A stretch of DNA of 64,000 bases from an uncultured beta proteobacterium (GTDB lineage: Bacteria > Pseudomonadota > Gammaproteobacteria > Burkholderiales > Casimicrobiaceae). Position numbers and translations under genes: made by a program. The notes beneath the pieces were generated by a model. That model saw nothing but the letters and a program-made list of their open reading frames with translations, searched no databases and was not told the DNA's origin. The stretch is taken from positions 437,903 through 501,902 of the forward strand of contig CAWHNE010000029.1 of NCBI GenBank assembly GCA_963830485.1, given 5' to 3'. Numbering within the stretch: the first letter of the stretch is position 1; each line of letters begins with the position of its first letter. Shown here piece by piece: positions 15,547 to 18,391 of the stretch.

Positions 15547-15564
15547 GACCGTCTGGCTCAGCGC
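15540..15564. terminator. GC-rich hairpin GCGCTGAG-N9-CTCAGCGC at the junction of convergent genes
   Basis: Perfect 8-bp stem read from the sequence. It contains the stop of the minus-strand gene (tca 15558-15560) and the inferred TGA of the permease. There is no U-tract. Confidence 0.45.
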
Positions 15565-17369
15565 GCTGCGAACGCGACGCCCCAGCGAGCCCCAGCGTGT
15601 GGATTCGCTCGGGTCCGATGAGGTCGCGTAAGATACGCGGGCCGCTCGGGCGCCGGCAACGCGCGCTCGAAGATGTCCGGCGCCGCGGCCAACGCGGCGC
15701 GCGTGTCCGGATCGGCGGCGGCGATCGCCAGGGAAGCGGGATCGACCCATGCGGTCTCTCCCGATTCGATCTGTGCGTAGATGCGACCCGTCGCCTGGTT
15801 GACGAAGTTGACGCGACGAAAGCGTCGAATGCACTCGATCACGAACGCCGTATTGCGCTCGGCGGCGAGGATCGACGGATCCGGATACAACTGCGCGGCG
15901 GAGGTGGCATTGATGTTCATCTGCCGATAGCGTTCCACGTCGAGCAGGCAGCCGACGTCGAGCACGTTGAGCGTGTCGTTCCAGCCGAAGGCAACGGTCC
16001 GCGGCCGCTCGCCCTGCGCGACGCTGTTGTCCAGGAACTCGAAGTGCACGCGCTTGTCGGTGCGGTTCGCCCAGGTGAAGAAGAGCCCCGGCATGCCGGC
16101 GTACGCCTCGACCGCGTGCGCGAGGATGTCGTCGACCGCCTTGTAGCGTCCGACGTCGAGGCCGCGTTGCCACGCGCGCTCGACGAGCGAGGCGGGCGGC
16201 GTGATCATCAGGAAGAGATAGACGAGCTCGCCGAAGCGCGTCAGCAGATTGCTGCCGGCTTCGTTGGAATCCGGCGCGAAGCTGTCGAAGCGGAACCGGT
16301 CGATCAGGAGATGCGTCATCCTGCCGGCCTGCGCCTTCGTGGCCATGTAGCGGTCAAGCTTGTGGTCGATCAGCGCCACTTCCTCGCCGGTGAACGCGCC
16401 CGCGTACTTGTACGCGTCGCCGAGGCTTCCGTAGTCGAGCAGCTGCTTGCGCCAGATGTCGGGGCTGATCAGCGCGAATTCGGCCCAGTCGACGCCTATC
16501 CGCGCCGCGAGCCCGCGCTGCAGCGGCCGCAGCGTACTCTTGCCCGACGCCGATGCCCCTTTCGTGTTCATCACGACCGGGCGATCCTGGCGTGGCAGGA
16601 CGCGGAAGCCTTCACGGCGCGCAGCCTCCTCCAGCATCGGCTCGAGCGCGGCGCCGATGCAATCGCCGGCGGCGTCGTTGCACGCGAGGCCCGTGGCGAG
16701 CCGCGCGATCATCTCGCGCGTTCCCCACGGACCGCCGTGCCGATTCAGGAGCGCCGTGACGATGCGGGCGAGCGCGCGGCACGCGGCGCGCTCGAGCGGA
16801 TCGCCGTCCGCGTGCGCTCGCGCCTCCCACTGCGCGATCACGCCCGCATCCCAGGCCGGTCCCGTCGGGTCGATGGGCGCCGCCGGAGGAGGGCCGCGTA
16901 GCAGCGCAGAGAGCCACGACCGCGGCGCCGGCGCGGCGGTCGCGACCGGCGCGGGCGCGAGGCGCGCAAGCTCGGCGTCGACATGCGCCGCGATGCGCGA
17001 TCGCGCTGCGTCGTACGCGGCGACGAGCGTGTCCATGCGCGGCTCGGCATATTCCTTGAGGATCGTCCGCACGATTGCGCGGAAGTTGATGCCAAGGTCC
17101 TCGATCTTCTGCCCGTCCGGCACGGAGAAGTCTGCCATCACGCGCACGAGGAGCTCGTGCAGCGCGAGGCGCTCGGGCCGGAACACGACGAGCGCGGCCG
17201 GCTCGAGACCGGTCAAGTCGGCGAGCTCGGAGGCCTCGGCCGGTGTCGTGAACACGCTCTCGGGACGGAAGATCGTCGCCAGGTGCGCGAGCGCCGCGGG
17301 GATCTGCGAGGAGAGTCCCGGATTCCAGGGACCGACCGCGACGGCGCGGTCGACGACGGTGGAGCTCAC
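15558..17369 (-). CDS. 603-aa protein with an unknown N-terminal half and a zeta-toxin-like P-loop kinase C-terminal half
   Basis: In frame with ORF 15558..18443. A GTG start at 17369 overlaps the upstream stop (GTGA). Walker A in ...VVMNTKGASASGKSTL..., followed by ...LLIDRFRFDSF... and ...LFLMITPPASLVERAWQRG..., resembling zeta-toxin/AAA_33 kinases. Confidence 0.7.
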   Translation of the reverse strand: MSSTVVDRAVAVGPWNPGLSSQIPAALAHLATIFRPESVFTTPAEASELADLTGLEPAALVVFRPERLALHELLVRVMADFSVPDGQKIEDLGINFRAIVRTILKEYAEPRMDTLVAAYDAARSRIAAHVDAELARLAPAPVATAAPAPRSWLSALLRGPPPAAPIDPTGPAWDAGVIAQWEARAHADGDPLERAACRALARIVTALLNRHGGPWGTREMIARLATGLACNDAAGDCIGAALEPMLEEAARREGFRVLPRQDRPVVMNTKGASASGKSTLRPLQRGLAARIGVDWAEFALISPDIWRKQLLDYGSLGDAYKYAGAFTGEEVALIDHKLDRYMATKAQAGRMTHLLIDRFRFDSFAPDSNEAGSNLLTRFGELVYLFLMITPPASLVERAWQRGLDVGRYKAVDDILAHAVEAYAGMPGLFFTWANRTDKRVHFEFLDNSVAQGERPRTVAFGWNDTLNVLDVGCLLDVERYRQMNINATSAAQLYPDPSILAAERNTAFVIECIRRFRRVNFVNQATGRIYAQIESGETAWVDPASLAIAAADPDTRAALAAAPDIFERALPAPERPAYLTRPHRTRANPHAGARWGVAFAAR

Positions 17370-18391
17370 GTGCGCCGCGCTGCGGCCGCCTCGTCCGCCA
17401 TCACGTAGACGGGATCGGTGAACAGCGACGCGACGACGACCTTCCGGATCGTCGGGTTGTCGGGCACGACGTAGAGGATCGGTGAGATGAGCTCCTCGAA
17501 GATGCCGCGCAGGCTGCGGGCGCCGGTCTTGTATTCGATCGCGATCTCCGAGATCTGTTCGAATACCTTGCGCTCGACGGCGAGCTCGACGCCGAGGCTC
17601 CGGAAGATCTCCTGGAACTGGCCGTAGATCGAGTCGCGCGGCTCGGTCATGATCCGCACCAGCATGTCGCGCGAGAGGTCGCCGAAGCGCGCGATGATCG
17701 GCAGCCGCCCGGTGAACTCGGGGATGAGCCCGTAGGCGAAGAGGTCGGCCGGCTTCACCCGCGAGTTCAAGCGGTCGAGGATCCGCTTGTTGTCCTGGTT
17801 GTCGGTCGAGATGAACCCGAAGCCGTGCGTCTGCGTCATGATCTCGTCGAGGCCGACGAACGCGCCGCCGCAGATGAACAGGATGTTCGCCGTGTCGACG
17901 TACTGCCCGCCCGCGAGCTTGACCTGCGAGCCCTCCATGATCTTCAGGAGCGCGTGCTGGACGCTCTCGCCGGATGCGACGCGCGCCTCCTTGCCCGTCG
18001 CCTTGAGCTTGTCGATCTCGTCGATGAAGACGATGCCGTGCCGCGCGCGCTCGACGTCGCCGCCGGCCTTCTCGGCCAGCCGCTGCAGGATCGCCTCGAT
18101 CTCGTCGCTGACGTAGCGCGTCTGCGCGAGCGAGGTCGCTTCGGCGGTGACGAACGGCACGCCGAGGATCCGCGAGAGCGTCTCGCACAGGAGCGTCTTG
18201 CCGGTGCCCGTCGGGCCAATCAGGAGCAGGTTGCTCTTCGCGACCGTCGTCTCGCGCTGCGCCGAGCGGGCGATCTTGCGAAAGTGCGCGTAGACGGCGA
18301 CGGCGACGATCCGCTTCGCGTCGTCCTGCCCGATCACGTAGCGGTCGAGTGCCTCGACGATGCGGCGCGGCGTCAGTTTCAGGTCGATCAC
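17366..18391 (-). CDS. ClpX-like AAA+ unfoldase lacking the N-terminal zinc-binding domain
   Basis: 341 aa, aligning by eye with the ClpX AAA+ module: [31 protein letters not shown], Walker A GPTGTGKT, Walker [38 protein letters not shown]. There is no C4 zinc finger. The pore loop is TRYVSD instead of GYVG, the RKH loop is absent, and HGFGFIS replaces the IGF loop. Confidence 0.85.

Follow-up and report, generated by a model that had tools for sequence, protein, structure and literature searches.

A zinc-domain-less ClpX paralogue beside a divergent zeta-toxin-family kinase gene: probably two independently conserved genes that are neighbours in one narrow betaproteobacterial clade

We analysed two adjacent genes on the minus strand of a 64,000-nucleotide stretch of DNA (hereafter the window; contig CAWHNE010000029.1, positions 437,903 to 501,902, assembly GCA_963830485.1) from an uncultured beta proteobacterium of the Casimicrobiaceae. 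The upstream gene encodes a short paralogue of the unfoldase ClpX, and the downstream gene a 603-amino-acid protein with a zeta-toxin-like kinase domain. An earlier interpretation made from the letters of the window (the sequence-only reading) had regarded the pair as a self-contained, dedicated module, perhaps a regulated toxin or a defence system. The locus comprises the following elements, all in window coordinates:

17366 to 18391, minus strand: short ClpX paralogue of 341 amino acids, consisting of the AAA+ large and small domains only, GTG start
15558 to 17369, minus strand: 603-amino-acid open reading frame (ORF), a zeta-toxin-like P-loop kinase, starting at the GTG of GTGA
17366 to 17369, minus strand: GTGA, shared by the start codon of the 603-amino-acid ORF and the stop codon of the ClpX-like ORF, as read from the ORFs
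18392 to 18528, minus strand: 137-nucleotide gap from a 179-amino-acid ORF to the ClpX-like start, from the ORF list; presumed promoter region
about 15540 to 15566, no strand assigned: GC-rich inverted repeat across the stop of the 603-amino-acid ORF and the expected stop of a convergent dppC-like gene, from RNA folding

The overlap of the two frames at GTGA, already described in the sequence-only reading, was confirmed. The GTG within it is the sole in-frame start of the 603-amino-acid ORF that lies 5' of the conserved GPWNPG motif without running into the ClpX-like gene, and homologues of the protein begin at the same alignment column. The same reading had the pair bracketed by a hairpin and an upstream gap. 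Both elements are real, and an 81-nucleotide stretch at the inverted repeat folds at -43.4 kcal/mol (z = -1.86), but the repeat has no U-tract and was not called by the terminator scan. A promoter and terminator scan over 15200-19200 called nothing, and no match to the sigma-70 consensus was found within the 137-nucleotide gap.

The product of the upstream gene was confirmed as ClpX-like, with 42% identity to Escherichia coli ClpX over residues 66-404, and the whole AAA+ module of the canonical protein aligns with it. Pfam assigned AAA_2 and ClpB_D2-small to the protein, and of the curated ClpX models in NCBIfam, NF003745 gave 353.8 bits, just under its cutoff of 359, and TIGR00382 gave 317.7 bits, below its cutoff of 370.75, the HslU model scoring far weaker than either. 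The ORF begins at the AAA+ module, at about E. coli residue 60, and since no in-frame upstream extension is possible the protein has no zinc-binding domain. The domain is missing from the whole short-ClpX family, as judged from a family alignment (A3) of the short-ClpX rows with E. coli ClpX. The motifs that were located are given below:

18194 to 18217, minus strand: Walker A motif GPTGTGKT, by translation check; invariant in A3
18107 to 18118, minus strand: pore-1 loop RYVS, replacing GYVG with the Tyr-Val pair retained, by alignment to E. coli ClpX
17894 to 17917, minus strand: 8-residue deletion that takes out the RKH loop (LAGGQ/YVD, the slash marking the junction), by alignment to E. coli ClpX
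17813 to 17821, minus strand: FGF tripeptide at the position of the ClpP-docking IGF loop, by alignment to E. coli ClpX

The four departures from ClpX that the sequence-only reading had listed (no zinc domain, an altered pore loop, no RKH loop and FGF in the place of IGF) were therefore all borne out by the alignment to E. coli ClpX, and the docking loop carrying FGF is in addition several residues shorter than that of E. coli. Walker A, Walker B, the arginine finger and sensor II (KTGARSLR) are intact in comparison with E. coli ClpX, and the pore-2 region is also conserved with canonical ClpX. Within the docking tripeptide, G192 and F193 are invariant in the short family (A3). The window protein further differs from canonical ClpX in its position away from clpP: neither clpP nor a canonical clpX lies within the window, and no clpP was found near short clpX in any locus examined.

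A database search returned relatives of about 335 amino acids with 70-96% identity, mostly from Betaproteobacteria and metagenome-assembled genomes of Burkholderiales. Metagenomes were also scanned with the ClpX-like protein, and 75 of the 80 loci recovered held canonical ClpX, the other five being paralogue loci. The 75 canonical genes were compared with 12 short paralogues at three positions:

Docking tripeptide: always [ILVM]-G-[FY] in the 75 canonical proteins; [FY]-G-[FY] in the 12 short paralogues
Pore-1 loop: GY[VI]G in 75 of 75 canonical proteins; [RKE]-[YF]-V-[NSG] in the 12 short paralogues
RKH loop: RKH in 64 of 75 canonical proteins; absent from the 12 short paralogues

An aromatic first docking residue is thus found in 12 of 12 short paralogues and in none of the 75 canonical proteins. 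As far as these alignments go, the altered zinc-domain, pore, RKH and docking features are traits of the family and not accidents of one sequence. The family would then serve as a natural set of variants in the pore-1, RKH and docking loops with which to look at substrate choice and ClpP docking by ClpX.

A paralogue of this kind has already been studied. ClpX3 of Myxococcus xanthus (MXAN_2743) has neither N-domain nor RKH motif and is 43.5% identical to E. coli ClpX; its gene is isolated, away from clpP, and is non-essential but needed for growth at elevated temperature (PMC11423568). The ClpX3 protein aggregated when it was purified (PMC11423568). By published description, the window protein resembles the ClpX3 type in the absence of both the N-domain and the RKH loop, in its location away from clpP and in its level of identity to E. 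coli ClpX (42% versus about 43%), although no zeta-like neighbour has been reported for ClpX3. The statement in the sequence-only reading that no characterised example exists therefore holds for the pair, but not for a ClpX paralogue without zinc-binding domain and RKH loop.

The 603-amino-acid protein divides into the following regions and motifs:

16596 to 17369, minus strand: N-terminal helical domain, amino acids 1-258, from the AlphaFold model
15960 to 16595, minus strand: Zeta_toxin-family P-loop kinase domain, about amino acids 259-470, from Foldseek, Pfam and hhalign
16536 to 16562, minus strand: kinase Walker A motif KGASASGKS, with K277 aligned to zeta K46, by alignment and translation check
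16458 to 16469, minus strand: ISPD motif, with the invariant D304 aligned to the catalytic Asp67 of zeta, from hhalign and family alignment A2
16143 to 16316, minus strand: putative Walker-B-like segment HLLIDRFRF (D357) and arginine-rich lid PPxxLVERAWxRGLxVGRY, from invariant A2 columns
15558 to 15959, minus strand: C-terminal alpha/beta subdomain and poorly conserved tail, stop codon included, from the secondary structure of the model

Taken alone, the 603-amino-acid sequence gave nothing significant in Pfam, NCBIfam or PADLOC: AAA_33 was matched weakly (E = 0.056), and Pfam Zeta_toxin not at all at E <= 0.1. Sequence searches of the PDB, with the protein itself and with two family profiles, returned chance-level matches only. 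At the level of the family, Pfam Zeta_toxin (PF06414) matches 17 of 33 diverse members, one of them above the gathering score (23.6 bits against 22.3), and one match spans profile positions 11-157 of 199. The AlphaFold model of the 603-amino-acid protein (predicted local distance difference test score, pLDDT, 74.8) placed PezT (2p5t) and zeta (3q8x/1gvn) at Foldseek ranks 1-5 with E values of 2e-4 to 3e-3 and a probability of 1.00, at modest TM-scores of 0.39-0.43 on the target; further matches were to AvrRxo1 (ranks 8, 10 and 18) and to adenylate kinases. When the family profile was aligned by hhalign to a real zeta toxin (the product of a gene from an Enterococcus plasmid found by tblastn, L145), E was 0.005, K277 fell on K46 and D304 on D67, the latter being a catalytically important aspartate of zeta (PMC5923241). 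Both residues are invariant in the 33 family sequences of alignment A2, as are D357 and the lid residues R398, R402 and R408, the functional assignment of the Walker-B-like segment and lid being inferred by analogy. The C-terminal half thus appears to be a divergent P-loop kinase of the Zeta_toxin family, supported at family and fold level by sequence profiles and the model; the zeta/AAA_33-type Walker A that the sequence-only reading had pointed out is present, and its assignment to zeta is backed in the same way. RefSeq labels the homologue in Azoarcus sp. KH32C as 'zeta toxin family protein'.

The N-terminal half had been called unassignable, and this stands. The domain of amino acids 1-258 was modelled with a pLDDT of 86 and gave no Pfam, NCBIfam or PDB sequence match; against solved structures the best Foldseek E value was 1.9, which is no match, and no epsilon or PezA antitoxin structure was among the best 50 of its 78 matches at E <= 10. 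With no solved structural relative, the predicted fold would be novel. The residues W15, G18, P24, R67, H71, G93 and R97 are invariant (alignments A2 and A4), and conservation in the family drops beyond about amino acid 545. Like zeta and PezT, the UDP-N-acetylglucosamine (UNAG) kinases of the epsilon-zeta and PezAT systems (PF06414), which are its best structural matches, the protein has a P-loop phosphotransferase fold in which the lysine of Walker A and the aspartate that activates the substrate can be aligned, and members of its family match the Pfam model. It differs in length (about 600 amino acids versus about 250-290), owing to the extra 258-amino-acid N-domain and the C-terminal subdomain, and in being encoded by a conserved chromosomal gene with no epsilon or PezA gene nearby, not by a plasmid addiction module. 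AvrRxo1, the zeta-like NAD kinase effector of Xanthomonas, likewise combines a zeta-related kinase domain with added helical elements and ranked high among the structural matches, but it acts as a type III effector, has AvrRxo1-ORF2 as its dedicated chaperone/antitoxin, and shows no sequence similarity to the 603-amino-acid protein beyond the P-loop region. After the Walker-B position the family reads IDRFRFD and zeta IEGTGRT, by our own reading of two sequences, and therefore the substrate of the 603-amino-acid family is probably different and not UNAG.

The kinase belongs to a very large family: clustering at 90% identity gives more than 5,400 clusters, the majority of them full-length and about 60% identical and nearly all labelled hypothetical, and clustering at 50% identity gives 819, in which full-length members reach down to about 30% identity. 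Carriers are found in Betaproteobacteria, Steroidobacteraceae, Rudaea, Ferrovibrionaceae and Puniceispirillales, and among cultured organisms in Skermanella, Methylobacterium bullatum and Azoarcus sp. KH32C. Such size and conservation are unlike those of fast-evolving toxin-antitoxin genes, to which the family is, on these sequences, unlikely to belong. Some family members seemed to have shuffled domains; these were rejected as probably truncated or frameshifted predictions, their unmatched parts having no Pfam hit. When the ORFs around the kinase in 57 loci were clustered, at first crudely and later with a filter on GC content at third codon positions, no neighbour proved to be conserved; the commonest cluster occurred in 10 of the 57, and the neighbours in the contexts examined were ordinary metabolic and regulatory genes.

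Genes related to coenzyme A (CoA) recur among these neighbours: an NDP-forming acyl-CoA synthetase, a family III CoA-transferase, an AMP-binding ligase, ketopantoate reductase and PrpD (L028 2273-5867; L012 4782-5684 and 7836-9443; L013 927-2327). They may offer a weak lead to the substrate of the kinase, or may be there by chance, as these genomes abound in such genes. On plasmid pAZKH of Azoarcus sp. KH32C (L143 6001-9110) the kinase homologue overlaps a downstream gene of the pyridoxal-phosphate-dependent aminotransferase family by 7 nucleotides and is divergent from gabT and an aldehyde dehydrogenase gene.

The distribution of the pair was examined from both sides. On the kinase side, one genome per species was taken (the 57 loci) and a ClpX-like gene was sought within 6 kb. 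It lies directly upstream of the kinase gene in four loci (L001-L004), which are the closest ones, with kinases 70-78% identical, and is absent from the other 53. A fifth case came from a metagenome (L142), in which the pair is present with a kinase 68% and a ClpX-like protein 80% identical. On the ClpX side, no kinase homologue was found in any of 11 other short-ClpX loci (L058-L065 and L146-L148; 68-78% identity). The flanks of L001-L004 are largely collinear with the window, with convergent dpp-type transporter genes downstream in L001-L003 and genes for a 256- and a 163-amino-acid protein upstream in L001-L004, and therefore the adjacency there reflects common descent. The sequence-only reading had proposed synteny in other genomes as the way to judge its module; the two genes are not adjacent outside close relatives, and with adjacency confined to these five loci the idea of a self-contained, dedicated module could not be upheld.

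The short clpX gene keeps a neighbourhood of its own both in and outside the clade, made up of the 163-amino-acid secreted protein and the 256-amino-acid methyltransferase-like protein, and often lies near Peptidase_M28, BatA/VWA and bactofilin genes too. The two genes were located as follows:

19864 to 20484 and 19100 to 19786, minus strand, in the window: genes for the 163-amino-acid protein (signal-peptide-like N-terminus) and the 256-amino-acid protein (methyltransferase-like lipoprotein)
Elsewhere: the same neighbourhood at L148 2516-3900, L146 3411-3905, L147 3407-3898, L059 10693-11891 and L142 562-1802

Vertical inheritance of the gene order may be all that lies behind this, or the genes may form a functional neighbourhood. 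That it is kept in and outside the clade would fit an arrival of the kinase gene next to a resident clpX paralogue in one lineage. The reading that we favour, with a probability of about 0.65, is that two chromosomal genes, each conserved independently of the other, lie side by side at this locus in one narrow, Casimicrobiaceae-like clade of betaproteobacteria, and that they are not a widely conserved two-gene system. The two genes would have become neighbours in that single clade, where they are tightly linked and probably co-transcribed on one transcript.

Some observations weigh against this reading. In L142 the pair persists although only the downstream flank matches the window and the upstream flank is partly different, which lends mild support to selection on co-expression. 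Within the clade the linkage is tight: in all five genomes the genes lie on the same strand, with the GTGA overlap of 4 nucleotides kept in L001 and L002 and a gap of 14-36 nucleotides in the others (24-36 in L003 and L004, 14 in L142). There are also precedents for a link between ClpX and zeta kinases, since ClpXP degrades the epsilon antitoxin of zeta according to a reference cited in the review PMC10532202, and in EzeT of E. coli an antitoxin domain that acts in cis is fused to a zeta kinase, the authors of that work having suggested that a protease or chaperone activates the protein (PMC4826407; PMC10532202). Biologically, it is therefore plausible that an unfoldase should be paired with a zeta-like kinase bearing an N-terminal extension. 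These points can be taken together as a clade-specific functional pair, in which the short ClpX would be a dedicated remodeller of the kinase, that is an EzeT-like regulated zeta kinase with an unfoldase of its own; ClpX may engage the kinase N-domain or a disordered tail and relieve autoinhibition, or degrade the kinase with ClpP. No Shine-Dalgarno sequence was seen close to the kinase start on inspection of the sequence, so that coupling by termination and reinitiation is plausible, and a 258-amino-acid domain fused ahead of a zeta-like kinase in one polypeptide has the broad architecture of EzeT (PMC4826407). We nevertheless consider a functional pair unlikely, if the most serious of the alternatives. 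The two families are overwhelmingly apart, in 53 of 57 kinase loci and in all 11 of the other short-ClpX loci, and 4-nucleotide overlaps are frequent between unrelated adjacent genes. In contrast with EzeT, the N-domain matches no antitoxin or other solved fold among the matches listed and is highly conserved, and the Trp, Arg, His and Gly residues that stay invariant in it over 30-79% identity suggest a functional site rather than an expendable inhibitor; the N-domain is also about three times larger than that of EzeT. A broader version, in which the partnership signalled by the operon of this clade holds in trans elsewhere, with ClpX proteins lacking the zinc-binding domain activating or turning over a widespread family of cis-regulated zeta-like metabolite kinases, would amount to a novel control mechanism in which an orphan AAA+ protein governs a P-loop kinase, but seems to us improbable.

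A toxin-antitoxin or anti-phage module, with a zeta-like toxin directed against cell-wall or NAD metabolism and restrained or triggered by the AAA+ partner, would account for the nearest structural relatives of the kinase domain being PezT, zeta toxins and the effector AvrRxo1, and for the conserved catalytic aspartate. The context of the gene, however, makes it very improbable. No antitoxin-like small gene adjoins the kinase; the position directly upstream is taken by the ClpX paralogue in this clade and by varied genes elsewhere, and neither antitoxin-like nor mobile-element nor defence genes were found associated with the kinase in the loci examined. For the kinase PADLOC returned nothing, and for the ATPase it gave generic AAA matches only (E >= 1.6e-6). 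In all contexts examined the kinase gene lies among metabolic or housekeeping genes, and its family, at about 60% identity from order to order, shows very strong conservation. The base composition at the locus is unremarkable, with a GC content of 0.69-0.71 like that of the rest of the window. The suggestion of a toxin or defence module in the sequence-only reading thus found no backing. Should the favoured reading of two independent genes be correct, the locus does not represent a new system, and it ought not to be listed among toxin or defence modules. The remaining alternative concerns the ClpX-like protein, which could be a ClpP-independent unfoldase of the chaperone or disaggregase type by virtue of its altered docking loop, with an unrelated kinase. 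The aromatic first docking residue that sets the short paralogues apart from all canonical ones, the shortened loop and the absence of clpP nearby speak for this, but the strict conservation of a hydrophobic-Gly-aromatic pattern (G192 and F193 invariant) argues that docking is still selected, and in M. xanthus the function of ClpX3 can partly be replaced by ClpX2 (PMC11423568), and we regard this alternative as improbable.

Under the favoured reading, the short ClpX is expected from its intact ATPase motifs and the Tyr-Val of its pore loop to form an active, hexameric AAA+ unfoldase. Its client range would differ from that of the housekeeping ClpX, because the zinc-binding domain and the RKH loops, with which canonical ClpX recognises substrates and adaptors, are both missing, and the FGF loop may still dock it on the ClpP of the cell, given that the hydrophobic-Gly-aromatic loop is so strictly conserved. 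The kinase family would combine the helical N-domain with a phosphotransferase domain of the zeta-toxin type and a small C-terminal subdomain. The enzyme would most likely transfer phosphate to a hydroxyl of some small metabolite, perhaps one linked to a nucleotide, and its role would lie in normal cellular function, not in that of the toxin of a toxin-antitoxin pair; a physiological rather than a toxic role is proposed because of the conservation of the family and its context. According to a review (PMC10532202), experimental knowledge of non-canonical zeta homologues is almost nil. The conservation of this family, in which a zeta-toxin-type catalytic core is joined to an N-domain with no match among solved folds, and its metabolic neighbours suggest that kinases of the zeta type also serve physiological, non-toxin roles.

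Some minor observations were made around short clpX in other genomes. In L058, on a 4.3-Mb contig, the gene lies about 2 kb from defence-type genes for a 1081-amino-acid nSTAND1 NTPase and a SIR2/TIR protein (9024-13008), neighbours that were seen in L058 only among the short-ClpX loci. A 636-amino-acid gene downstream of short clpX in the same locus was considered as an analogue of the kinase and rejected, as it has no similarity to it and no codon-usage support and is probably a false gene call. One contig (L147 7048-7668) carries a gene of the group II intron maturase type (GIIM) about 2 kb from short clpX.

Others concern the genes that flank the pair in the window. A 688-amino-acid protein (20355-22421, minus strand) has an adenylate/guanylate cyclase catalytic domain followed by TPR repeats, and its gene is present in L001 and L002 and missing from L003 and L004. 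The 179-amino-acid ORF directly 5' of the ClpX-like gene (18529-19068, minus strand) has a signal-peptide-like start and a tail rich in Tyr, Gly and Pro; it gave no Pfam match, and its core is conserved in L001-L004, L142 and L146. On the other side, the convergent dppC-like permease ORF (14964-16901, plus strand) has lost its stop codon at about 15545-15550: relatives end in '...DALDPRNA*' or '...DPRDA*', and the window frame reads '...DPRDALRPSG...' and continues for about 450 further codons antisense to the 603-amino-acid gene. From the sequence, the extra C before TGA (GAC GCG C TGA) looks like a 1-nucleotide insertion or an assembly error.

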